DNA of 64,000 nucleotides from Escherichia coli (GCA_902499925.1 GCA_902499925.1_4130.1); one strand, 5' to 3'; positions 4,865 through 57,392 are shown, counted from the stretch's first letter. Translations and numbers: made by a program. Notes: generated by a model from the sequence alone, not told the origin.

Positions 4865-5034
4865 GCTTTCACCTCGCGATCTGCTTTACCTTTACGCCAG
4901 GACATTACTAATTGTTCGCGTTGCCATAAGTCGAGTGATACAAAAAGTTTTGCGGTATCACTTTTAGGATACTCGCCATTAGTACCTAACCGATAAAACA
5001 GATCTTTCAGTACTGATAATTCTACTTGGATCAT
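4861..5034 (-). CDS. hypothetical protein (57 aa)
   Basis: Track ORF 4861..5136 trimmed to Met35 (MIQVELS) with RBS AGAGGAAAG; hairpin upstream. Confidence 0.5.
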   Translation of the reverse strand: MIQVELSVLKDLFYRLGTNGEYPKSDTAKLFVSLDLWQREQLVMSWRKGKADREVKA

Positions 5035-5416: not shown

Positions 5417-5740
5417 TTATTCACCTTGTTTGAATTTAGTTTTCTCCATTGATTCCATGATTGCAACCAATACACCGTGGATCTCGCTTAACGCGGAATC
5501 ACTAAAAGCATTAATGAATAGTCGATCATTCTCGCGAATATTTTTAATGTACTTTTCAGCAGTAGTTGCGAATTCATTCAACGGTAGATCAAATGCTTTA
5601 TCCCATGATGGATGGCGTAATTGTAACAGTACTGGATTATCACGATCACCAGGGGAAAACGTACCAGTGATGAAACATACGCCCGGAATACTTTCGAACT
5701 GGCAACGGACTTCCTTTGTGATAGTAGTATGAATGTACAT
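5417..5740 (-). CDS. hypothetical protein (107 aa)
   Basis: Minus ORF; RBS AGAGGATAACAATAA. Confidence 0.6.
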   Translation of the reverse strand: MYIHTTITKEVRCQFESIPGVCFITGTFSPGDRDNPVLLQLRHPSWDKAFDLPLNEFATTAEKYIKNIRENDRLFINAFSDSALSEIHGVLVAIMESMEKTKFKQGE

Positions 5741-5767
5741 TTATTGTTATCCTCTATTAAATTAATA

Positions 5768-5956
5768 TTACAGTTTATGAATCAATTCTTTATCTAAGCG
5801 ATAGCGTACATTATTAATGGTAACAGCATTATTTTTAATGCTACGCTGTACAGGTCCACCAGCAATAACAAATGTTGCTTTATTACCCCGAACAATGATA
5901 GCACTTCCAGGATTACCGAAATCATCTTGTACTAAAATACTTGATAAGTTTTCCAT
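5768..5956 (-). CDS. hypothetical protein (62 aa)
   Basis: Minus ORF; RBS AGAGGAAATAAAA; hairpin upstream. Confidence 0.55.
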   Translation of the reverse strand: MENLSSILVQDDFGNPGSAIIVRGNKATFVIAGGPVQRSIKNNAVTINNVRYRLDKELIHKL

Positions 5957-12562: not shown

Positions 12563-12799
12563 TTATGATTTTTTATAAAACATTTCAGCAGTGATATTTT
12601 TACCCGTTGGCTGTACTTTATCCAGGATTTTTTGATGTCCAGGCCGACCAAATGAATATGATCCGTAAACCGTAAACCAGTAGTTACCCTCAGTGTTTAC
12701 ATGTACAGCACAATAAGGAACACCACGCGATTCATCACTAGTAAAGTGTGATACCGTTCCCGTTACATTCGCAGACGTTGATTTGATTTGTTCGAGCAT
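12563..12799 (-). CDS. hypothetical protein (78 aa)
   Basis: Minus ORF; RBS AAGGAATAAGAAA; hairpin upstream. Confidence 0.55.
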   Translation of the reverse strand: MLEQIKSTSANVTGTVSHFTSDESRGVPYCAVHVNTEGNYWFTVYGSYSFGRPGHQKILDKVQPTGKNITAEMFYKKS

Positions 12800-12906
12800 T
12801 TTCTTATTCCTTAGTTACCAGGGGAACCACTCCCCTATGCAAAACATTATACGCGTTTAAAAACTAATTGCAAGTATTTTAATAAAAAGTATTTGAAAAA
12901 TAGTTG

Positions 12907-12935
12907 TTGACAAGTGCATCCAGTACTGGCATAAT
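12907..12935 (+). promoter_or_regulatory. plus-strand (antisense-oriented) sigma70-like promoter
   Basis: TTGACA-17-CATAAT read on the plus strand; CCCACCGGGTGC box about 30 nt downstream; no plus-strand ORF follows. Confidence 0.4.
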
Positions 12936-13003
12936 TACTACATAAAGACAAAACAGTCTCTAACCCACCGGGTGCCGAGATCCGTCTATTAAATGATTCA
13001 GTA

Positions 13004-13036
13004 CTGAAAAAGTAACGGGGAGTTATTATCTCCCCG
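13004..13036 (-). terminator. intrinsic terminator
   Basis: Hairpin CGGGGAGATAATAACTCCCCG then UUACUUUUUC on minus RNA, 3' of 13042..13263. Confidence 0.55.
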
Positions 13037-13041
13037 CGTTG

Positions 13042-13263
13042 TTATTTGGTAAGGTATAAACAGAAGTCACCTTTATTTGCTACGCCGCCAGTGTAACGCG
13101 ATGAATAGTTAGAAACGTCCTGGACTTCTGCTATTACCAGTGTATCATCATTCATTTCGTCGCAGAAGCAAACGGCTGGATCTTGTACGCCGATTTTGTC
13201 GGCATGTTCCCGCATAGATTTAACCAGTGCTTCCAGTTGGGAAAGAGTAGTGATATTAGCCAT
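13042..13263 (-). CDS. hypothetical protein (73 aa)
   Basis: Trimmed to Met11; RBS GAGGAAAATAAA; hairpin upstream. Confidence 0.55.
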   Translation of the reverse strand: MANITTLSQLEALVKSMREHADKIGVQDPAVCFCDEMNDDTLVIAEVQDVSNYSSRYTGGVANKGDFCLYLTK

Positions 13264-13349
13264 TTTATTTTCCTCATTACCAGGGAGAACCATTTCTCCC
13301 TTTGATGTAAACCATTATACAGTACTGAAAACTAATTGCAAGTACTTTT

Positions 13350-13553
13350 TTAATTTAATTGCTTTAAAACATACTCAAAGACACCACGCACATCATTGAT
13401 CATCGCCTGGCGGTTAGCAGGTAACGCATCAGGATCGCCACTATCCCAGGCATTGATAAAACTCCCCAAATCATGATAGATTTTATTCTGTAAGCCGATT
13501 AACTGCAATTCTTTTTCTTCAAGCTCTTTGATACGTTCAATTAAATCACTCAT
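13350..13553 (-). CDS. hypothetical protein (67 aa)
   Basis: Trimmed to Met13; RBS GAGGATTATCTA, identical context to 13571..13855. Confidence 0.5.
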   Translation of the reverse strand: MSDLIERIKELEEKELQLIGLQNKIYHDLGSFINAWDSGDPDALPANRQAMINDVRGVFEYVLKQLN

Positions 13554-13570
13554 TAGATAATCCTCAGTAC

Positions 13571-13855
13571 TTAACTGTAAGATCCGCAACGGTCGCAGTA
13601 GTGCCCGTCCTCGTCATCGTCAACGAATTGACCGACGAAATGATCTACTTTCGCTTTCAGGTTATTATAATCGTTTTCTACTTCCGTTAAACGCTTCTGG
13701 TAGTATTCCAGTGCTTTAAGATATGCCGCATCAGCAGTTTTCTCCTGCATAGCTAAATTCATGCCACGCGTTTCATCGTACAGCCAAAAACCATCGGTGC
13801 ACTCACTGATTGACAATGATTTACTTAACACATTGTACTTTATTACTTTACTCAT
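13571..13855 (-). CDS. hypothetical protein with C-terminal CxxC (94 aa)
   Basis: Trimmed to Met14; RBS GAGGATTATCTA; C-terminus HYCDRCGSYS; hairpin upstream. Confidence 0.55.
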   Translation of the reverse strand: MSKVIKYNVLSKSLSISECTDGFWLYDETRGMNLAMQEKTADAAYLKALEYYQKRLTEVENDYNNLKAKVDHFVGQFVDDDEDGHYCDRCGSYS

Positions 13856-13911
13856 TAGATAATCCTCAGTAAAGGCGGGAACCATTCCCGCCATTGATTC
13901 AGTACTGAATG

Positions 13912-14151
13912 TTACATTCCAACCATTGCGGCACGGATCGCAGTAGTGCTATACTTGAATCCGTCCGGCGTTGTAGTAGTACCGTTGGCTTTTAATCTGC
14001 GGTACATACATTGGGCCGCAATATCTTTAGTTTTACATTGTGCGATGCAACTTTGAGCAAGCCGATATAATGACTCACCGTTATTAATCCACAATGAAAC
14101 ATTCCAATGAGTTTTGTTTTTGTGCCCGTTGTAAGTTTTAGTACTAGCCAT
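13912..14151 (-). CDS. hypothetical protein (79 aa); paralog of 15951..16190
   Basis: Trimmed to Met11; RBS GAGGATTTAAAA; shares GHKNKTHWNVSLWINN...PDGFKYSTTAIRAAMVGM. Confidence 0.55.
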   Translation of the reverse strand: MASTKTYNGHKNKTHWNVSLWINNGESLYRLAQSCIAQCKTKDIAAQCMYRRLKANGTTTTPDGFKYSTTAIRAAMVGM

Positions 14152-14241
14152 TTTTAAATCCTCGTTTGAGCGGGGAACCATTCCCCGCCTCGATATAAAG
14201 TATTATACGCTTTTAAACTTAGTTTGCAAGTACTTTTTGAA

Positions 14242-14853
14242 TTAATATTCGATTGATTCTACTACGCCATCAATAACATTGAATTGATATTCGTTACCCT
14301 CAATCAGTGCCGTAATGTTTTCAGTACTGAATTGATCCTCATATGCATTCTCTAAATCACGGTACAACTTGCGGGATAATTCACGAATAGTTTCAGTGAG
14401 TAGTTCCTCAAGCTCATTAACTAACGTTTCTTGTTTTGCGGTTAAATCAGTGTAAGCCGATTCAATGTACCCGCTTACAGTGTTTTCGTGTGAGTAGCGA
14501 GATTGAGAACGCTTTACACTCATCGCCAAATCATCTTCATTCAGCAGGTGACGGATTGAGCGATACTTAGTTAATGCTCTTACCTTGCGTAAAAACTTCA
14601 CTGCGTCAACGTGGTCAGTACTGATTGATGCACCGTCACCCTGGGACCAAAAACCACTGAATTGTATTTCAGCGTCATTAATGCCATATTCCGGTAATAC
14701 TGTTTCTTTATAGTATTCGATCACTGACTCAGAAAAGAAATCATCCCCGCTTGAACGTTCACGTTCCCGAACCAGTTCGATAGCTGACGTTTTTTGTTCT
14801 GCGTTCAATTCAGAAAAATCCATAACATAAGTAGTAGTAGTGATAGTTTTCAT
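14242..14853 (-). CDS. hypothetical acidic protein (203 aa)
   Basis: Minus ORF; RBS GAGGGTTACAAA; tandem promoters with structured leader upstream. Confidence 0.6.
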   Translation of the reverse strand: MKTITTTTYVMDFSELNAEQKTSAIELVRERERSSGDDFFSESVIEYYKETVLPEYGINDAEIQFSGFWSQGDGASISTDHVDAVKFLRKVRALTKYRSIRHLLNEDDLAMSVKRSQSRYSHENTVSGYIESAYTDLTAKQETLVNELEELLTETIRELSRKLYRDLENAYEDQFSTENITALIEGNEYQFNVIDGVVESIEY

Positions 14854-15078
14854 TTTGTAACCCTCATTCAGTAGTTGATGTAAGTATTATACGCTTTTAA
14901 AAACATTTGTCAAACTATTTTATCAGGGGAGTTTTTCGTGTGCCTTACTCCTGGGCTACTTAACGGGGAGTTACTTATTTCGTTCCCCGTCCTGATGTAA
15001 AACATTATACGCCTTTAAACATAGTTTGCAAGTACTTTTTAAAAATAGTTTTCAGTACTGAATATTAAAAAAAAAGTA

Positions 15079-15107
15079 TTGACAGCATTATCAAGTACTG
15101 GTATAAT
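15079..15107 (+). promoter_or_regulatory. plus-strand (antisense-oriented) sigma70-like promoter
   Basis: TTGACA-17-TATAAT on plus strand; CCCACCGGGTGC box downstream. Confidence 0.4.
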
Positions 15108-15281
15108 ATATCCCATGACAACAGCTAACCCACCGGGTGCACAATTGTAACTATACTAAACTAATTTTTCTATAGATACACTCCCGCACCCTATGGGCTA
15201 CGGCTTATCTGCCAATGAATACATTATGCCAGTACTGACAAAATAAGTCAATACCGGCAATTGTAAAGATTTGTAAACTGC

Positions 15282-15512
15282 TTATACTGCAATCGCGTCC
15301 AGGCTATAATAATAATAAGTGCCGTATTGGTGTACTTTATTACCTTTTATTTCAGTACTGAATGAATCCGAACGATTGGCATATGATGTTAATTTAAAGT
15401 ACTTTGATTTGCTGATACGTTGCCATACACCGCAGATCCGCTGTAAGTAAGTAGTTTTATTAGTGGTAGTATCTTTTACGGTTTTAACTTCAGTCATATA
15501 CATATTGGTCAT
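15282..15512 (-). CDS. hypothetical protein (76 aa)
   Basis: Minus ORF; RBS AAGGAGTAAAAAAA; hairpin 15535-15553 upstream. Confidence 0.55.
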   Translation of the reverse strand: MTNMYMTEVKTVKDTTTNKTTYLQRICGVWQRISKSKYFKLTSYANRSDSFSTEIKGNKVHQYGTYYYYSLDAIAV

Positions 15513-15601
15513 TTTTTTTTACTCCTTGCTTTAGTGGGGAACTATTCCCCACCTGATATAAAGTATTATACGCTTTTAAACTTAGTTTGCAAGTACTTTT
15601 T

Positions 15602-15865
15602 TTATAGTACTGCTATCTTTTTAGTACGGTACACGGTAACACGATTCCCCTTACGGTCGAGCTTTATTTCTACCACTCGACGCGATACACTAGCAGGACT
15701 TTTCAACGCCGCTAACCAGTACTGTAATGATCTGGCGGTACTACGCTTTACAATGGCCCAACGTTTACCACTTTCCGATTGTACGCCCATATCTTTAAAC
15801 GTTGCCCCGTCCTGGCGTGCGGCGATCCGAGCTTGTTCACGCGTCGCAAAATACTTAATATTCAT
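15602..15865 (-). CDS. hypothetical protein (87 aa); paralog of 2951..3346
   Basis: Trimmed to Met13 (MNIKYFATRE). Confidence 0.55.
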   Translation of the reverse strand: MNIKYFATREQARIAARQDGATFKDMGVQSESGKRWAIVKRSTARSLQYWLAALKSPASVSRRVVEIKLDRKGNRVTVYRTKKIAVL

Positions 15866-15950
15866 GCTGTTGCCCTTATCGTTGGTGTATGAATAAAACA
15901 CTATTATAAAGTACTATCGCAAAAAATGATAGTACTTTAAATAAATTCTA

Positions 15951-16190
15951 TTACATTCCAACCATCGCCGCACGGATCGCAGTAGTGCTATATTTGAATC
16001 CGTCCGGTGTTTTATCTTGTCCAGTCTGTTCTAAAAATAACATCATATGACGGGCCGCATCATTGCGATTAGTGCTATCGTTAATAAAGTCCTGGGCCAA
16101 CCGGTATAATGATTCATCGTTATTAATCCAAAGGCTTACATTCCAATGAGTTTTGTTTTTGTGACCTAAGAACATTTTTGATTTAGCCAT
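15951..16190 (-). CDS. hypothetical protein (79 aa); paralog of 13912..14151
   Basis: Minus ORF; RBS AAGAGGATTAAAAA; hairpin upstream. Confidence 0.55.
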   Translation of the reverse strand: MAKSKMFLGHKNKTHWNVSLWINNDESLYRLAQDFINDSTNRNDAARHMMLFLEQTGQDKTPDGFKYSTTAIRAAMVGM

Positions 16191-49928: not shown

Positions 49929-50297
49929 CTATCGATTTGGCATTTTATCTCGTAATTTCACAAGATAATCAATCACGGTACATCCTGAAATAAAGGTAAT
50001 ATAAGTACTGAAAAATCCTACCAGAATAAAGGCAACAAGCGTACTCCCATTTGGTTCTTCAGCTTTAATACCAATGATACCATCAGATGCAGTGAAAAAT
50101 GTAGACATAAACGTTAGACAGATGTACATCACTAATAAGAATTCATGTTCTAATGACGGATAAAAACGATCAAAAAGTTTATAAAATTTAAAGTACAGTA
50201 GGAGTATACCAACAAAGGCATAGAAAGTAAACAGTGTTGTTATGATATATGATATTAAATTTAAATTATACATCTCAACGCTCCGGTAGATTATCAC
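49929..50297 (-). CDS. small multi-pass membrane protein, family member (122 aa)
   Basis: Same family as 41332-43771; C-terminus ...LRDKMPNR. Confidence 0.6.
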   Translation of the reverse strand: MIIYRSVEMYNLNLISYIITTLFTFYAFVGILLLYFKFYKLFDRFYPSLEHEFLLVMYICLTFMSTFFTASDGIIGIKAEEPNGSTLVAFILVGFFSTYITFISGCTVIDYLVKLRDKMPNR

Positions 50298-50616
50298 GTA
50301 ATGTTTTGATTCGATTATACAATTTCATTGCTACATTTCCAAATAAACCAAAACCCATTACTAAAATGTATGCGATGATCATAGTAATAATTACAATAGT
50401 ACCTAGACTGTAATGTACTGCACTGATACCCATTATTGTTTCTACAATGATGTGAGCAACAGAAATCACCAAAAGTACTACTACAATTGGATGATTTGGA
50501 TACATTCGGTTAAACAATGTTTTGTACTTAAAGAAGTACAGTACTCCACCAAATAAGAAGTACACAATGTAGATTGATGCAACGGCATAAGCAAACGCAT
50601 TAGTGTAAAAAATCAT
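50275..50616 (-). CDS. small multi-pass membrane protein, family member (113 aa)
   Basis: Track start is TTG; ATG at Met3 has RBS AAGGATTGATA; C-terminus ...LRDNLPER. Confidence 0.6.
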   Translation of the reverse strand: MIFYTNAFAYAVASIYIVYFLFGGVLYFFKYKTLFNRMYPNHPIVVVLLVISVAHIIVETIMGISAVHYSLGTIVIITMIIAYILVMGFGLFGNVAMKLYNRIKTLRDNLPER

Positions 50617-50625
50617 TATCAATCC

Positions 50626-50964
50626 TTACTTTTCAGGGATTTTATTACGCCACTCATCGATGCGATGAAGCAGTTTAAAGAGCAAAAATATCGGAACTGT
50701 AGCTATCATAGTAGCAATTGTTAGTAATGTCAACATCGATACGAGATTTAATTCGTCCGTACTATATCCACATACCAGTACTTCAATTATCCCCCACGTA
50801 CATGCACTGAACATCAAAAATGAAATTGGTGCATCGTAGTATATGCGTTGATACAAGGTCGTGTATCGGAAGAATGCAATAATGTAACAAAACATGTAAT
50901 ACACCCAAATTAACGATACTACATAAAATGATACCTTATTAATTAATTCAAAATGTTGTTCCAT
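50626..50964 (-). CDS. small multi-pass membrane protein, family member (112 aa)
   Basis: RBS AGGGGTAAAAA; C-terminus ...WRNKIPEK. Confidence 0.6.
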   Translation of the reverse strand: MEQHFELINKVSFYVVSLIWVYYMFCYIIAFFRYTTLYQRIYYDAPISFLMFSACTWGIIEVLVCGYSTDELNLVSMLTLLTIATMIATVPIFLLFKLLHRIDEWRNKIPEK

Positions 50965-51260: not shown

Positions 51261-51674
51261 TTATGCTGGTACACAATTTTTTATAATGAATACACGTTTC
51301 ATGAATGAACTTTCATATACGTACTTCAGTTTACCATTTTCACGCATACGATGAAACACATCTTTACCGCTAGTACTCCATGTTGAACCAGTCTCTGCAT
51401 CAACATTGTTCATTACACCAGATGTTACGTTCACCCCGTACTTGAAGCTAAAGGTACTACCTTCTTCTACCAGAGGGATTGGTGTACTACGTTCATGTTC
51501 CAGTACAAGTTTACTGCCGATGATGTTGTACGAAGTTAGCTTGCATTTTAAAACACCCATCTCTTGTGCAGTTGGGTAATTCTTCTCAAACAAATCAGAT
51601 ACTTCATTTGCATAACAAACTGAACTAATCATAAGAAGTAATGAACTGATAGAACGGAAAATAACTTTTAACAT
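51261..51674 (-). CDS. secreted protein with signal peptide (137 aa)
   Basis: N-terminus MLKVIFRSISSLLLMISSVCYA; RBS GGAGGCAAAC; cassette upstream. Confidence 0.6.
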   Translation of the reverse strand: MLKVIFRSISSLLLMISSVCYANEVSDLFEKNYPTAQEMGVLKCKLTSYNIIGSKLVLEHERSTPIPLVEEGSTFSFKYGVNVTSGVMNNVDAETGSTWSTSGKDVFHRMRENGKLKYVYESSFMKRVFIIKNCVPA

Positions 51675-51740: not shown

Positions 51741-52115
51741 TTATATTTTACATGTCATGTCTGGTTTTGGCTTTTCATTCTTTGGCTTTTCAAATGGATT
51801 TGGCTTAGGGGACTTTTTATCTTTATCATCTTTAGCTTTCTTTTTGTTTTCTTTTTTATCCGATTTGTCAGCTTTGTCTTTCTTATCTTTTGAATCTTTG
51901 TCAGCTTTAGATTGTGGTTCCTCACATACAGCAGCTTTTGGCTCTGGCATATCACATGAGTTATCCACAGGTTTAATGAACTCTTTACAGTTGTAGAAGT
52001 ATAAACTTTCATTGGTAGTAAGATTGTGGAATCTAAAGGTATTTTCACCATTAGTATATACTTTCTTAGTACTCTCAATATCATTACACATTGCAACTGT
52101 GTCACCGGAATTCAT
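51741..52115 (-). CDS. protein with Cys-containing N-domain and Lys/Asp-rich tail (124 aa)
   Basis: RBS AGGTATCGAGC; overlaps stop of upstream gene; preferred over alternative-frame ORF 51755..52105. Confidence 0.5.
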   Translation of the reverse strand: MNSGDTVAMCNDIESTKKVYTNGENTFRFHNLTTNESLYFYNCKEFIKPVDNSCDMPEPKAAVCEEPQSKADKDSKDKKDKADKSDKKENKKKAKDDKDKKSPKPNPFEKPKNEKPKPDMTCKI

Positions 52116-52353
52116 GCTCGATACCTATTACATCCGACTTACGTTCAGATAGTATTCCAGACGTATATCGATCTTTGTTATCAAATGCATTGAACCCTAT
52201 AGTTTTATTATTGTCATGTACCAATCCTCTAGTGTAAGACTTGGTATAGAACTCACCGTTTCTAAACTCCTGTCTAGCAATGGAGCACTGGTATTCAGTA
52301 CTATAAACTATATCAGTAAACAATACAAGTGAAAATAAAACATATTTAAACAT
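52102..52353 (-). CDS. secreted small protein (83 aa)
   Basis: Signal-peptide-like MFKYVLFSLVLFTDIVYS; RBS AAGAGGTAATGCA. Confidence 0.55.
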   Translation of the reverse strand: MFKYVLFSLVLFTDIVYSTEYQCSIARQEFRNGEFYTKSYTRGLVHDNNKTIGFNAFDNKDRYTSGILSERKSDVIGIEHEFR

Positions 52354-52379
52354 TGCATTACCTCTTATAAAACCCTCTA

Positions 52380-52417
52380 CAATATTTACAAAAAAAGGTT
52401 GACCGAAGTCAACCTTT
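52380..52417 (-). promoter_or_regulatory. terminator-promoter cassette
   Basis: Perfect hairpin AAGGTTGAC-cgaa-GTCAACCTT, T-run, TAAATA. Confidence 0.5.
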
Positions 52418-52424
52418 TAAATGT

Positions 52425-53918
52425 TTATTTTTTATCCTTTCCAACACCACGGTCGTACTCTTTGAATGAGTTATCAAGTGTAGTTAGAGCATACTCATAT
52501 GCTTCTGGTGATTCAATGTCAACATCATCTGCACCATTTACTAAATCAGCCCAAGCCTTTTGAAGTTTACGAGCATTGTTACCAACATTATCTTTAATCC
52601 AACTAATATTTTTGTTGATACTTTTACTATCAGCACCTGCTTTTTTACCAATCTCGGATATCCACATCATTAACTTTTGAAGTTCATGAATTGATTTATC
52701 AGTCATTTCAAGATGTTCTTCTTCCATACCGTCAGTATCAGATGAACCAACGTCAATTCCATGTTTAGCTAATAGTTTACCAAGTTCAAAGAATGCAGCT
52801 TCAGCAGGGAAGTCATAACCTTTCTCTTTGTAGTTATTCCATGCACTATCAAACTCGTCAACAAAACGGTTAGCATAATCTGGATTTTTAACTAATGCTT
52901 TATATACTGCCATTGCATGTTCAAAACCTTCTTTATCTGACCCAAACTCTTCCATCTCAGGACGATGAATGTATCCATCCATATCAACGGTATCAGGTAG
53001 ATCTTCTTGCTCAGGCTCAACATCTTTCTGTTCAACTGCACCTTCTTCATCTGCACGCTTTAGATAACCATCTGGTGTTACCTTCTCACCATGTTCGGCT
53101 TCATACTTTTTCATAGTGTTGAATGCAGCATCCATAGCTGTTACGAAGCGACTTTTCTCACCTTGTACATAAGATTTAAGTGCACTGTTAACTGCATCTG
53201 ATACGAGCTTAACCTTATCGTCTTTACCTTCTAAACGGTTTTCAAGTTTAGCCAGTACATTCTTGACTTGCTGGGCATTAGCACGGTCTGCTTTACCAAT
53301 ACTATCAAAAGTTTTAAGAATACCATCAAGACTTGCTTCACCCTGTTCAGGTTCTTTGGAATCTTCTTTGTGTGTACCTTCAAGTGCACGCATGATAGTA
53401 CTGAATACTTCAGTAGGTTCAGTGCTCTTATTACCTTTCATTGCATCAAGTACAGCTTGTGCTTTACCTTTGAGTTCTTCTTTAGGAACTGCCTGTAGTG
53501 CTTTGACAATACCCTGAATCAACTGTGGTTTGTTAGCAAAGATCTTACCTAAGTTATCAGATAACTCTTTAACAGGGTTAGCTGCTTTAGGAGCTTCTGG
53601 TTTTGGTTCTTCTTTAGGAACTGCTTGTTCTTTCTCAGCACGTTCCATATCAGCAAGGCGTTGTTTCTGTGTTGCGTTAAGAAGACCTAATGAGTTAACA
53701 TAACGTAGCTTTTCTAGCTCAGTCATGTTCTCAGTACTCTTAACTGCACCTGCTTCTGCGTTTGCCTTACCAGCTAAACCTGTCCCTTGATTACGTGAAC
53801 CACGTGACCCCTGTCCTGCTTGATAACTATTTTTGCGACGATTTCGGTCGGCCCATTTATCCGAGTGTTGTACTAGTCCACCATTACGATGTTTCATATC
53901 CCCATTATCTTGTGGCAT
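52425..53918 (-). CDS. Lys/Glu-rich protein (497 aa), function unknown
   Basis: RBS AGAGGATTAAAAAT; N-terminal region shares Y(V/L)(N/D)SLGLL motif with 55282..55665. Confidence 0.65.
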   Translation of the reverse strand: MPQDNGDMKHRNGGLVQHSDKWADRNRRKNSYQAGQGSRGSRNQGTGLAGKANAEAGAVKSTENMTELEKLRYVNSLGLLNATQKQRLADMERAEKEQAVPKEEPKPEAPKAANPVKELSDNLGKIFANKPQLIQGIVKALQAVPKEELKGKAQAVLDAMKGNKSTEPTEVFSTIMRALEGTHKEDSKEPEQGEASLDGILKTFDSIGKADRANAQQVKNVLAKLENRLEGKDDKVKLVSDAVNSALKSYVQGEKSRFVTAMDAAFNTMKKYEAEHGEKVTPDGYLKRADEEGAVEQKDVEPEQEDLPDTVDMDGYIHRPEMEEFGSDKEGFEHAMAVYKALVKNPDYANRFVDEFDSAWNNYKEKGYDFPAEAAFFELGKLLAKHGIDVGSSDTDGMEEEHLEMTDKSIHELQKLMMWISEIGKKAGADSKSINKNISWIKDNVGNNARKLQKAWADLVNGADDVDIESPEAYEYALTTLDNSFKEYDRGVGKDKK

Positions 53919-53922
53919 ATTT

Positions 53923-54465
53923 TTAATCCTCTATCCATGTTTGATTGTATAAAATACGACGTATTGTTTTTTTACATACACGGTATTTATTACAATTTTC
54001 TCGTGCATATTCTATCACATCATTATAATTATCATTATAATCTTTTCTTATTTCTCTTACAATTTCCCATGTCAACACAGCAGCACCACGATTAGTTGTT
54101 GCGTTACCATGTGAATAAGAATATAGTACGTTTTCAGATGCTGTGTTCCATTCCAAATTCAAATAGTGATTGTTACTTCTATTACAATCTTTATGGTTTA
54201 TGTGAACAACTTTTTTCTTTGTTCTACTCGCCCACTGTAACTGTTTCTGTTTGGGTGGTGGTAAAAATGCTTCAGCTACTAGTCGATGAATCGCCTTTCT
54301 ATTTTTCACAGAATTGCGATACAAATCGACCTTCACATACCCATCTTTATTTTTAAATCCACAACTTATATATCCAGTTTGTTCGTTTCTTACTCTTCCA
54401 TGATCAGAAATTGAATAGTCATAATCAGGAATTAATTTCCAACGTTCCATGTTTATTTCTTCCAT
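53923..54465 (-). CDS. HNH homing endonuclease (180 aa)
   Basis: WKLIPDYDYSISDHGRVRN then HRLVAEAF and VHINHKDCNRSNNHYLNLEWNTASEN, the HNH_3 family pattern; start may be Met6. Confidence 0.8.
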   Translation of the reverse strand: MEEINMERWKLIPDYDYSISDHGRVRNEQTGYISCGFKNKDGYVKVDLYRNSVKNRKAIHRLVAEAFLPPPKQKQLQWASRTKKKVVHINHKDCNRSNNHYLNLEWNTASENVLYSYSHGNATTNRGAAVLTWEIVREIRKDYNDNYNDVIEYARENCNKYRVCKKTIRRILYNQTWIED

Positions 54466-54498
54466 TATATATAAAGGTTGACCGAAGTCAACCCTATT
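54465..54498 (-). promoter_or_regulatory. terminator-promoter cassette
   Basis: GGGTTGAC-ttcg-GTCAACC, T-run, TATATAAT. Confidence 0.5.
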
Positions 54499-54515
54499 TT
54501 CACTGTACTATACCA

Positions 54516-54812
54516 TTAGTAGTTACAGTCAGCTTTCGCTGTGAATGTTTTACTTTCTCCGCGTTGTGTGGTGATTCGTCCGAGTAAAGTAGTTTTGTCA
54601 ATAGTCATTGTAGTTAGTACTGGAACATTACCTTCAAAGTCAATAGCTTTGAAATTGTAGGTGGTTTCATTCTCCACTACACTTGGACCAAAGAGTTCAT
54701 ATGTGTTGATTTCAAGTGTGTCACCATCCGAACGCATCAGTGTACAGTCCAGATTAGGAGTAGCCAGTACAGGGAAAGCCAAACACATCATCATTGCAAT
54801 AATTAATTTCAT
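54516..54812 (-). CDS. secreted small protein (98 aa)
   Basis: Signal peptide MKLIIAMMMCLAFPVLA; RBS AGGAGAAGTGAA. Confidence 0.6.
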   Translation of the reverse strand: MKLIIAMMMCLAFPVLATPNLDCTLMRSDGDTLEINTYELFGPSVVENETTYNFKAIDFEGNVPVLTTMTIDKTTLLGRITTQRGESKTFTAKADCNY

Positions 54813-55072
54813 TTCACTTCTCCTGTTTTTTTCTTAGGATCAACCAATGACCAAATGAAGAATCCGAGAATTACAAGTACCCACAGAATCATGATAAAGA
54901 AAGCAAACAGTACAATAGTATTTGTCAAAAAGAAATACAATAGAATGTTCGACCCAATACTACATACAATCAATGCAGCTTCATGTTTAACAACACGAAT
55001 GGCTGTAATGAGTGCGGGAAGAAATCCGACAAATAACAGTACTAACGCATATAGTGATAATGTTTCAGCCAT
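54809..55072 (-). CDS. small membrane protein (87 aa)
   Basis: Two or three hydrophobic helices; RBS AAGGGATATC. Confidence 0.55.
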   Translation of the reverse strand: MAETLSLYALVLLFVGFLPALITAIRVVKHEAALIVCSIGSNILLYFFLTNTIVLFAFFIMILWVLVILGFFIWSLVDPKKKTGEVK

Positions 55073-55080
55073 GATATCCC

Positions 55081-55194
55081 TTATTTGGTTTGTTCAACAC
55101 TAGGTGTATTGATATAGGTGTCAATTGAATAACATACTGTACCAACTACAACAGCAGCGATTAGGGCAGCGATGATGAATTTAGTACCTTGCAT
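55081..55194 (-). CDS. small membrane peptide (37 aa)
   Basis: Untracked ORF MQGTKFIIAALIAAVVVGTVCY...; RBS GAGGTATTAAATT. Confidence 0.35.
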   Translation of the reverse strand: MQGTKFIIAALIAAVVVGTVCYSIDTYINTPSVEQTK

Positions 55195-55241
55195 AATTTA
55201 ATACCTCACGTTGTTTGTATTTTGTATCACTTGATGAAAAT

Positions 55242-55280
55242 ATTATACGACAAAGGGCTGACCGAAGTCAACCCCTTTTA
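55242..55280 (-). promoter_or_regulatory. terminator-promoter cassette
   Basis: GGGGTTGAC-ttcg-GTCAGCCC, T-run, TATAAT. Confidence 0.55.
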
Positions 55281-55281
55281 A

Positions 55282-55665
55282 TTATTTTTTAAACTTATGT
55301 TTTTCGCCTTCAATAGAGTTCACGATGTCATCATGAATCTTGCGAAGGTTATGAGTTTTCTTTAGTGCTTCATGTAGTGCACGGAATGCTGCGTGTACTG
55401 TTGCCTTGAAGTGCTCTTTAGGAGTCACTTTAAGTTTCTCAATGATATCACGTACATAAATTGGATGATCTTCAAATACACGATTCAATTCATGGCCTAG
55501 TGATTCTAGACTGAAAGCTTTTTCACGTGAAGGACGATCATGTGCAAGACTTTGGTCAGGCTTTAGTAGACCTAGTGAATCAAGATACTTATGCTTATGT
55601 GCATTATCAATTCCAGAAATATCCACATCATGCGATGGATCTTTCTTATTCCATTTATCAACCAT
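55282..55665 (-). CDS. hypothetical protein (127 aa); N-terminal motif shared with 52425..53918
   Basis: RBS AAGGAGTATGAA. Confidence 0.6.
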   Translation of the reverse strand: MVDKWNKKDPSHDVDISGIDNAHKHKYLDSLGLLKPDQSLAHDRPSREKAFSLESLGHELNRVFEDHPIYVRDIIEKLKVTPKEHFKATVHAAFRALHEALKKTHNLRKIHDDIVNSIEGEKHKFKK

Positions 55666-55776
55666 TTCATACTCCTTAAAGAGATAAATTACTTTAATAT
55701 TTATACTTCATGTGCTGTTTATTTCTACAGACACTTAAGATTATATCACATATGAAATGGTTGTTCCAAAGTCAAA

Positions 55777-56220
55777 TCAGTACTGCTTAAGTTCTGAACT
55801 GAAGATAAAGGAATCCATATCTTCTAGTGTTAACTTCAAGTCCGGTGTGTACTTTAATATCACACATTCAGGTTTCTTAATGGCAGCTTGATAGGCAGCA
55901 ATTGCCAACTGTTGAAGCTGCTCTGGTGTGTAGTTCATGCGTTCTGCATTGAATACGATGTTCTTAATATCACCACCAGGTAGCTTCTCAAACTCACGCA
56001 TAACAGCAGCCATCACATCATCAGATGTATTCTTATAAGCCCAATGAGGTAGTTGCATAACGTCATAAATCTCGCCATTGTCGTTCATAAGAGAGATCCA
56101 TTTTTTACAGTCCGATGAACTAAACAGACGACCTTTAATAGCAATGTTCTCTACCAAATTAACAAAGGCAAATATGTCTTGCTCATTTAGTTCAATGCTA
56201 TTAACGTTAATCCAACCCAT
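55777..56220 (-). CDS. hypothetical protein (147 aa)
   Basis: RBS GGAGATGAAGT. Confidence 0.6.
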   Translation of the reverse strand: MGWINVNSIELNEQDIFAFVNLVENIAIKGRLFSSSDCKKWISLMNDNGEIYDVMQLPHWAYKNTSDDVMAAVMREFEKLPGGDIKNIVFNAERMNYTPEQLQQLAIAAYQAAIKKPECVILKYTPDLKLTLEDMDSFIFSSELKQY

Positions 56221-56233
56221 ACTTCATCTCCAG

Positions 56234-56806
56234 TTATAAATCACGAACGACATTCATTAAACACAATTTGGGCTTTATCGCATTCAAAACCCATATGCAT
56301 TCTTTGTAAGTTGCTATTATAGCATCTAAATGCTCAGTTACAATGCTTTCTTGAAAATATTCTTCTTCATTGAGCTTTGCTAAATTAGTCACATCACATG
56401 TAGGTACTATAGTTCTGGATTGTACACCCATTCCATTATTGATATTGGTAAAATGTAAAAATTTGTACTTCACCACACCGTTATCTACACTTATGATACA
56501 TGTCAAATGTTCCAACTCAGTTAGTTCGGTATTACAAGTGACATGGATGAATCCAGCATTATAGGCTCTATAATCATCTACTAATATCTCAAAATCATTA
56601 CGTTCAAATATAAGTGAAATGAGTTTGTCTTGTGGTTTAACCTTCTGAAATTTTAACGAATTTACGTATGATACTTTAATCTTAGATGAAATTATCTTTT
56701 TACTAAGTGCAGTTAATTCTTCTTTAGCCTTAAAAGTTAAAGTTATAGGTCTAAATCTAGAACTTTTGTTCTTCTTTGATACTTTGAACTTACCTTTTCT
56801 ATTCAT
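56234..56806 (-). CDS. hypothetical protein (190 aa)
   Basis: Minus ORF; basic N-terminus. Confidence 0.55.
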   Translation of the reverse strand: MNRKGKFKVSKKNKSSRFRPITLTFKAKEELTALSKKIISSKIKVSYVNSLKFQKVKPQDKLISLIFERNDFEILVDDYRAYNAGFIHVTCNTELTELEHLTCIISVDNGVVKYKFLHFTNINNGMGVQSRTIVPTCDVTNLAKLNEEEYFQESIVTEHLDAIIATYKECIWVLNAIKPKLCLMNVVRDL

Positions 56807-57167: not shown

Positions 57168-57392
57168 TCAATTTTTAGTCACTTTACAATTTGAATCTTT
57201 TTTGTACTGAACAATCACATTGTTCTTAAGGAAGATGATGGTCCCATAGGAACCTTGGGCTGCAACTTCAACAATATGGTTCTTATATGTTTCAGTATAT
57301 CCTTCCATCTCGTTGATACACACTACATGATACTTTGGTTTAGCACATACAACAGTACTCAAGAATAGCAGTACTAGTACTAGATATTTCAT
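57168..57392 (-). CDS. secreted small protein (74 aa)
   Basis: Signal peptide MKYLVLVLLFLSTVVCA; RBS AAGGTAATAAA. Confidence 0.55.
   Translation of the reverse strand: MKYLVLVLLFLSTVVCAKPKYHVVCINEMEGYTETYKNHIVEVAAQGSYGTIIFLKNNVIVQYKKDSNCKVTKN

Follow-up and report, generated by a model that had tools for sequence, protein, structure and literature searches.

A shared N-terminal unit links two putative virion proteins encoded in an Asteriusvirus-type jumbo phage sequence

The DNA analyzed here, referred to as the window, is a stretch of 64,000 nucleotides (nt) deposited under Escherichia coli (GCA_902499925.1). Two genes on its minus strand, which encode charged proteins of 497 and 127 amino acids (aa), are the subject of this analysis, and the proteins are designated as the large and the small protein. 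In a megablast search with positions 52000-56300, the Escherichia phage EC.P1 matched the whole query (100%) at 98.8%, a set of coliphages of 350-385 kb matched at about 98.5% over 86%, and PBECO4 and 121Q matched at 87-88%. Judged by these matches, the window belongs to an Asteriusvirus-type jumbo myovirus of the RaK2-like group. Both genes are located far from the clusters of tail, baseplate, and head genes, and are surrounded by small accessory open reading frames (ORFs), most of which are unannotated. The orthology of the two ORFs was assigned by position and sequence (Table 1). The direct orthologues and other members of the family, namely 121Q gp199 and gp201, phAPEC6 gp037c and gp035c, RaK2 gp275, GAP32_032, CBB_38, and BF gp027, have the same N-terminal unit, and the gene order is kept. 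The large protein is 90% identical to 121Q gp201 across the first 189 aa, and the small protein is 94% identical to its closest cluster.

Table 1. Features of the two genes and their surroundings in the window. pLDDT, predicted local distance difference test score; pI, isoelectric point.
Feature	Position	Strand	Description
497-aa virion protein gene	52425..53918	-	Orthologue of 121Q gp201, phAPEC6 gp035c, and fEgEco12 g555; counterpart of RaK2 gp275; assigned by ORF, PHROG match, and synteny
Segment A, aa 1-60 of the large protein	53739..53918	-	Basic Gly/Ser/Asn/Arg-rich disordered arm, …HSDKW…GSRGSRNQGTG…; pLDDT <50; conserved across genera
Helix B, aa 61-81 of the large protein	53676..53738	-	(D)TSxMxxxEKL(K/R)Y(F/V)NSLGLL; helix 67-76, pLDDT about 80
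Linker, aa 82-112 of the large protein	53583..53675	-	Pro/Glu/Lys-rich, length variable in alignments; residues 100-112 with low pLDDT
Domain C, aa 113-182 of the large protein	53373..53582	-	Four helices, 115-126, 131-142, 146-162, and 168-180; NPVKELSDxLGKIF…PKE…STEPTEVFSTIM
C-terminal extension, aa 183-497 of the large protein	52428..53372	-	Acidic (pI 4.7, net charge -24), all-helical, mosaic, at least three helical blocks with disordered linkers
HNH/NUMOD4 homing endonuclease gene	53923..54465	-	Pfam HNH_3 and NUMOD4; phrog_59 E 2e-37; directly upstream of the 497-aa gene
127-aa virion protein gene	55282..55665	-	Orthologue of 121Q gp199, phAPEC6 gp037c, and fEgEco12 g551; stand-alone copy of the unit with truncated N-terminus
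Domain C of the small protein, aa 52-127	55285..55512	-	Helices 53-63, 68-79, 83-103, and 107-126, pLDDT about 80; aligns to aa 113-182 of the large protein
N-terminus of the small protein, aa 1-35	55561..55665	-	Remnant of segment A (DKW, PSHDVD) and KHKYLDSLGLL helix; predicted helix 21-30
Putative T4-type late promoter box, TATAAATA	55698..55705	-	32 nt upstream of the ATG of the small gene
Sigma-70-like promoter match	55740..55769	-	TTGGAA-18-TATAAT with TG; further upstream of the small gene; 10/12 in consensus scan

Both proteins show significant matches to protein families in PHROG. The large protein was matched by phrog_20398 with the e-value (E) 3e-236, and by phrog_16530 with E 3e-34 over residues 12-182. 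The small protein was matched by phrog_16530 with E 8e-55 (positions 50-168 of 168 in the profile) and by phrog_20398 with E 2e-4. The label of both families is "virion structural protein". The genes and the virion association of this family had been catalogued previously.

An earlier note on this DNA had described an N-terminal motif, KxRY(V/L)(N/D)SLGLL, shared by the two proteins and followed by a helical, Lys/Glu-rich region. The strings it quoted are present in both proteins: EKLRYVNSLGLL at aa 69-80 and LGKIFANKPQLIQGIVKALQAVPKEELKGKAQAV at aa 123-156 of the large protein, and HKHKYLDSLGLL at aa 23-34 and LNRVFEDHPIYVRDIIEKLKVTPKEHFKATVHAA at aa 60-93 of the small protein. The beginning of the motif has to be rewritten as Kx(R/K)Y: in the small protein, which reads KHKY, the R given in the note is K. 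Alignment of the two N-termini, the check which the note had proposed, revealed significant similarity that extends beyond the motif to the whole small protein. BLASTP aligned the two proteins over 115 aa with 26% identity (E 5e-9). The Smith-Waterman score was 89, while shuffled sequences scored 35.6±5.3 with a maximum of 65 (z about 10), and 0 of 2000 shuffles reached 89. A hidden Markov model (HMM) of the small-protein family recognized the large ORF with E 8.5e-11, and no other among the 592 ORFs of the window. In multiple alignments, the full small protein is aligned with residues about 20-185 of the large protein. The sequences P0013 and P0084 combine traits of the large and small forms and bridge them.

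It may be argued that two charged helical proteins resemble each other by chance or through their composition, as charged residues constitute about 33-35% of both proteins and the pairwise identity is just 26%. This explanation has a practically negligible probability: it is refuted by the shuffle test and by profile matches from E 8.5e-11 to E 3e-34, and bridging sequences such as P0013 and P0084 join both forms. On these comparisons, the two ORFs are classified as paralogues of one family.

The shared unit is 125-185 aa in length. It consists of four pieces, which were defined from members in other phages and metagenomes: a basic disordered arm (A), a helix (B), a variable linker, and a four-helix domain (C). 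The arm of about 60 aa follows the pattern MPxxF…GHSDKW…NRR…GSRGSRNQGTG…GKAN. Its pI is 10.6 with the net charge +6 in the large protein, and ranges from 10.6 to 11.1 in the family. Helix B is described as amphipathic with the core Kx(K/R)Y(F/L/V)xSLGLL, and the family consensus is DTSKMxxEEKL(K/R)YFxSLGLL, in which K70, Y73, L77, and G78 are invariant in the alignment. The HMM of domain C matches the large protein once (E 3.7e-35). The invariant residues of helix B and domain C (K70, Y73, L77, G78, L123, F127, P131, I137, L141, P145, and K150) are present in both proteins of the window, as is the signature Kx(K/R)YxxxLG followed by L…F…P…I…L…PK. The small protein lacks about 29 aa of arm A (RR…SRGSRNQGTG…), which are still present in P0013, a protein of 171 aa with 54% identity. 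The pI is 9.6 for the shared unit and 9.05 for the small protein, while it is 5.25 for the entire large protein.

Genera share 55-64% identity in the unit, while their C-termini are shuffled or different. In the AlphaFold2 model, the large protein is composed of short helical bundles and disordered linkers. The breaks with low pLDDT at residues 181-192, 291-304, and 392-402 coincide with the breakpoints of homology at residues 305/309, 350, and 403 of the query. Proteins of the phAPEC6 type match residues 1-305 at about 83% and residues 350-491 at about 53%, while many proteins of 520-566 aa match residues 1-180 alone. The blocks at residues 197-302 and 403-491 occur separately in other family members. 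A conserved N-terminal unit joined to unrelated or shuffled C-termini in different phages would fit a core-plus-cargo design. Internal repeats of domain C were searched for in the C-terminal extension, and none were found. The metagenomic relative P0096 clearly has two tandem copies of domain C, and the second match in P0093 is weak (E 0.13).

Neither Pfam nor structure-based comparison pointed to a function for either protein. No Pfam family was matched by the two proteins, with Tau95 (E 0.025) below the threshold. The profile of the unit had no matches to PDB sequences, and structure prediction with fold searches yielded no functional lead. The annotation of phAPEC6 gp035c as a "chromosome segregation protein", which was based on a weak hit similar to structural maintenance of chromosomes (SMC) proteins, was considered and rejected; no Pfam match at E<=0.1 supports it, and neither an SMC ATPase head nor a long antiparallel coiled coil was seen in the AlphaFold2 model of the large protein. 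Separately, aa 370-420 of the large protein (52659-52811) show a weak ankyrin/DARPin-like match, ELGKLLAKHGIDVGSSDTDG, with the best E 0.004 against PDB sequences; this match spans the length of one repeat and is not accompanied by a Pfam hit.

The family is small. A profile search of 1.84 billion proteins (cluster representatives) recovered just 32 matches, and the unit is N-terminal in all of them, in proteins of 82-598 aa. The unit constitutes the entire protein in GAP32 (GAP32_032, 173 aa), BF (gp027, 155 aa), and CBB (CBB_38, 172 aa), as well as in the Yersinia and Xanthomonas relatives and in many metagenomic proteins; in most related genera these proteins are 155-178 aa in length. The distant metagenomic members are on contigs of 1-3 kb, and therefore their genomic context is uninformative. 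Using the bridging protein P0013 as a query, tblastn (E<=10) found two places in each Asteriusvirus genome and likewise in the Salmonella SE_PL/Munch group, one each in RaK2, K64-1, GAP32, and BF, and three each in CBB and fENko-Kae01, where a hit lies in the annotated terminal repeat. In CBB (12746-16174) and the Klebsiella phage fENko-Kae01, the family gene is positioned within the long direct terminal repeat, and therefore two copies are present per packaged genome; CBB_38 recurs as CBB_591 in the tables of the CBB paper. Neither the HMM of arm A nor that of the complete unit recovered further paralogues from the window or from the roughly 157 kb of 121Q that were scanned; the region 107-300 kb of 121Q was covered by tblastn. 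No short N-terminal tag was found in common with 32 other annotated virion proteins of 121Q, among which gp597 has a Gly/Ser/Asn/Arg-rich N-terminus that resembles arm A in composition only. From these searches, the family is restricted to RaK2/121Q/GAP32-like jumbo myoviruses and does not represent a widely used tag.

Members of the family have been detected in virions of several phages. Electrospray ionization tandem mass spectrometry of phAPEC6 virions detected gp035c with 8 unique peptides (28.8% coverage) and gp037c with 5 peptides (48.0%) (PMC7247149 Table 1). Peptide counts and coverage are also available in the supplements for RaK2 and CBB: RaK2 gp275 (64.1 kDa) was detected with 20 peptides and 34.3% coverage (PMC3622015), and CBB_38 with 9 peptides and 56.6% coverage (PMC5259590). 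Table S1 of the CBB paper equates CBB_038, GAP32_032, and RaK2 ORF275, and all three are positive in mass spectrometry (PMC5259590). Both gp199 and gp201 of 121Q are annotated as "structural protein". Orthologues of both proteins thus end up in the virion, as already published, and the possibility raised in the earlier note, that neither protein would be found in virions, does not hold for these relatives. The small protein lacks most of arm A and its phAPEC6 orthologue is nevertheless found in virions; therefore, either helix B and/or domain C or binding to the large paralogue would have to be sufficient for incorporation.

The sequence upstream of the small gene includes TATAAATA, which occurs just twice in the window. 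The same box precedes the large gene in 121Q, fEgEco12, and phAPEC6, and also the small gene in 121Q. In the 148 kb of 121Q that were scanned, it is positioned 16-56 nt upstream of the genes for the major capsid protein (MCP), scaffold, baseplate hub, endonuclease VII, and other virion proteins; the distance is 45-47 nt for the MCP and scaffold genes, and several baseplate genes are also preceded by it. Because of this location before the MCP, scaffold, and several baseplate genes, the box can be read as a marker of late genes in the 121Q phage group. 121Q also encodes a late sigma factor, and probable late expression of the two paralogues is supported by the box and by this factor. The sigma-70-like match further upstream of the small gene is weak evidence, because such matches are no more numerous in the region than expected from shuffling.

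The large gene of the window has a different upstream region. Positions 53868-54472 have no counterpart in fEgEco12; they comprise the HNH gene, which is an insertion relative to fEgEco12 and 121Q, and an altered 5' end of the large gene. The region of TATAAATA and the first about 17 codons of the large gene have been replaced with this segment. The HNH gene is not a member of the family, and is absent from most relatives, that is, from the phages with the 86%-coverage megablast matches. The N-terminus of the large protein, MPQDNGDMKHRNGGLVQHS, resembles RaK2 gp275 and not 121Q gp201, which suggests that flanking sequence was co-converted during homing. The endonuclease gene upstream of RaK2 gp275 shows no homology to the HNH gene of the window. 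The HNH gene and the RaK2-like N-terminus set this locus apart from its direct orthologues. A GC-rich terminator-like hairpin, GGTTGAC-TTCG-GTCAACC, is found at 54476-54493 and 52393-52418, flanking the cassette of the HNH gene and the 497-aa gene, and its TTGACT is the -35 element of a sigma-70-like promoter match (11/12) before the HNH gene.

The earlier note had also suggested, as a guess, that the shared region could be a packaging or targeting module, as in the internal proteins of T-even phages. The presence of orthologues in virions and the core-plus-cargo pattern are in agreement with this idea, but the region is not a short T4-like peptide; it is a unit of 125-185 aa, and represents the whole protein elsewhere. 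The T4 targeting peptide is a propeptide of 10 residues removed by gp21, and the T4 internal proteins share it and otherwise diverge (PMC9026906). The likeness to T4 IPI, IPII, IPIII, and Alt lies in the architecture: small charged proteins and a larger one share an N-terminal region and diverge elsewhere, their genes are away from the head cluster, a protease/scaffold/MCP module is present, and the products are found in virions. The differences are a cleaved tag of 10 residues ending with Glu in T4 against a folded unit of 125-185 aa with a disordered arm here, and the lack of any sequence similarity to the present family, for which packaging in the head is inferred. The T4 internal proteins are small and basic; the small protein and the shared unit are likewise basic, while the entire large protein is acidic. 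It is possible that the core-plus-cargo arrangement works like the T4 system.

A processing site was searched for in both proteins. No propeptide of the MKTYQEFIAE type (about 10 aa with Glu at the end and L/I at P3) was found at the N-termini, which are MPQDNGDMKH… and MVDKWNKKDP…, and there is no (L/I/V)xE within the first 60 aa of either protein. The candidate site V-K-E|L (aa 116-118) is conserved in proteins of the large form, and is absent from BF, GAP32, and the small form. 121Q has a T4-like head module composed of a portal, a gp21-like protease, a gp22-like scaffold, and a gp23-like MCP. The MCP of 121Q (35645-36820 of the stretch 300001-348532) has an L-T-E|S site at residue 43, and its predicted mass after cleavage is 37.2 kDa. 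This matches the reported mass of 37 kDa (PMC5646251), and therefore the protease is probably specific to L-x-E.

The best explanation, held with moderate confidence, is that the two proteins are late-expressed virion paralogues, in which the unit is the core for incorporation or anchoring, the extension is a variable passenger, and the most likely location is inside the head. The conserved unit would bring the protein into the particle and keep it there through a conserved binding partner; the basic arm would be suited to contacting packaged DNA. The C-terminal extension, in which blocks differ between phages by shuffling, deletion, or replacement, would be a variable passenger. Inside the head, the proteins may be internal, associated with an inner body, or ejected; functionally they would be similar to the T4 internal proteins and Alt, without their cleavable tag of 10 residues. 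121Q and phAPEC6 have a phiKZ-like inner body revealed by bubblegram imaging, to which no proteins have been assigned (PMC5646251; PMC7247149), and a location in the head is considered possible because of this body. Proteins that are internal to the head or ejected from it would be in line with the basic disordered arm, the helical bundles, the clade-specific distribution, and gene positions away from the structural clusters. Paralogy, the architecture of the family, the detection of orthologues in virions, and the late-promoter box are established; a role of the unit in incorporation, the contact with DNA, and the location inside the head are what we infer.

Several points weigh against this explanation. 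The data are also compatible with a position on the tail, the capsid surface, or the hair-like fibres. The virion lists of phAPEC6 and RaK2 also include single-stranded DNA-binding (SSB), RecA-like, and topoisomerase proteins (PMC7247149; PMC3622015), and therefore detection by mass spectrometry alone does not prove a structural role. The HNH insertion removed the late box of the large gene in the window. The orthologues in GAP32 and BF are behind perfect TTGACA-17-TATAAT promoters near the genome end, and their expression in these two phages may be early as well as late. The family has no (L/I/V)xE protease site that is conserved in all members, and the pattern is missing altogether from BF gp027. 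The unit is carried by just two proteins per genome, and therefore it is not a general targeting device. At positions 4940-5010 of each examined stretch from GAP32 and BF, the -10 element of the perfect promoter is enclosed in the loop of an inverted repeat of 10 bp (AATCCCCTAA…TTAGGGGATT), which could be a regulatory hairpin or operator.

It is very unlikely that the shared N-terminus is a T4-type capsid targeting propeptide, which would bind the scaffold core and be cut by the gp21-like protease to release internal proteins. The T4-like head module and the probable L-x-E specificity seen from the 121Q MCP are in favor of this, as are the high conservation of NPVKE|LSD (V-K-E) and xxE|KL(K/R)Y in proteins of the large form and the fact that the T4 internal proteins have only the targeting peptide in common (PMC9026906). 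The conserved region of 125-185 aa, however, does not resemble the 10-residue peptide of T4. The only (L/I/V)xE of GAP32_032 is at a non-homologous position, and BF gp027 lacks the pattern, so no such site is common to the family. The small protein has H in place of E of the large protein before K-x-K-Y, and P0083 has S (NPVKS). Removal of the unit would leave nothing of the GAP32- and CBB-type proteins, yet CBB_38 was detected with 56.6% coverage. The class of T4 internal proteins with a targeting peptide was rejected because of the unit size, the lack of a conserved site, and the unit being the whole protein in most genera. It is also quite improbable that these are non-structural, DNA-associated early proteins, which are co-purified with virions or carried in passively with DNA. 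The long run of small, mostly unannotated ORFs around the genes, the promoters in GAP32 and BF together with the sigma-70-like match at the small gene of the window, the basic unit, and other DNA-binding non-structural proteins in the mass spectrometry lists would be explained in this way. Against it, members were found in four independent virion proteomes with coverage of 28.8-56.6%, and in all of CBB, GAP32, and RaK2, a set in which many genuine structural proteins escaped detection in one phage or more; the late-promoter box is common to MCP and scaffold genes, and the whole large protein is acidic (pI 5.25).

Two further explanations concern the position of the proteins in the particle. 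External or tail-associated parts, such as capsid decorations, anchors of hair-like fibres, or neck and tail accessories, would attach through the unit and expose the extension. 121Q, phAPEC6, and CBB have unusual head and tail fibres whose anchor proteins are unassigned (PMC7247149; PMC5646251), exposed proteins typically have a distal part that is mosaic and evolves fast, and both genes are late; but the all-helical beads-on-string architecture with acidic disordered linkers and a basic disordered arm is unlike known decoration or fibre folds, the genes have small accessory ORFs as neighbours and are distant from the clusters for tail, baseplate, and head, and the protein of most genera has no extension to expose. 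An external location is thus judged unlikely. More specifically than head-internal paralogues in general, the family may be a part of the 121Q-type phiKZ-like inner body, or may be ejected with DNA, a proposal that is tentative and on the doubtful side; the basic unit would serve as an anchor on packaged DNA or at the portal axis, and the exchangeable acidic C-terminal blocks would be host-specific effectors, such as anti-defence cargo. The likeness to inner-body and ejection proteins of phiKZ, 201phi2-1, and SPN3US lies in a jumbo phage with a bubblegram-positive inner body (121Q and phAPEC6), and in virion proteins that are paralogous, helical, and of low complexity, with genes outside the main structural cluster. 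Inner-body proteins of phiKZ are processed at S/A/G-X-E sites, while such a pattern is not established for the present family. Sequence or fold similarity to phiKZ gp89/90/93/95/97/162-type proteins was not found. The authors of the phAPEC6 study stated that no phAPEC6 protein is similar in sequence to phiKZ inner-body proteins (PMC7247149). Extensive processing of the phiKZ inner-body proteins by the phage's own protease is described there with reference to Thomas et al. 2012 (via PMC7247149).

Some other features were recognized in the window and its relatives. Three tandem small ORFs (122, 115, and 112 aa) at 49929-50964 on the minus strand apparently encode paralogous multi-pass membrane proteins, which have in common the motif F(K/R)Y(K/T)TL(F/Y)xR(I/M)Y and the C-terminus R(D/N)K(I/L/M)P(E/N)(K/R). 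Small ORFs with signal-peptide-like N-termini are found around both virion genes at 51261-51674, 52102-52353, 54516-54812, and 57168-57392 (minus strand). A secreted-looking protein follows the family gene in GAP32 (5587-5931) and BF (5535-5885), positions being those in the examined stretches; these two proteins are homologous to each other (E 3e-19) and show no detectable homology to the ORFs of the window. At 51741-52115 (minus strand), an ORF of 124 aa has an extreme Lys/Asp low-complexity tail (KADKDSKDKKDKADKSDKKENKKKAKDDKDKK…). This ORF is absent from 121Q at the same position, where a gene for a gp0.7-like protein kinase is nearby instead. No tRNA genes were found in the window (1-64000). 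The sign of GC skew changes near 18 kb and near 40 kb, and these are read as changes in the direction of transcription.

As it stands, the result mainly tidies annotation: two proteins labelled "hypothetical" or "virion structural" are recognized as paralogues, and phAPEC6 gp035c carries the label "chromosome segregation protein" without support. The architecture of the family is now defined: all four pieces, from the arm through the helix and linker to the four-helix bundle, form the unit, to which a variable extension is added in some members. If the inner-body or ejected proposal is correct, the family would be an uncleaved, domain-sized counterpart of the targeting-peptide-plus-cargo system of T4. 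If the unit is the determinant of loading, the block-shuffling evolution of the C-terminal part would be explained, and the unit would provide a handle for packaging foreign proteins in a capsid of the 350-kb class, like the T4 targeting peptide. If it loads proteins into RaK2/121Q-like heads, these proteins would be the first candidates named as components of the inner body.

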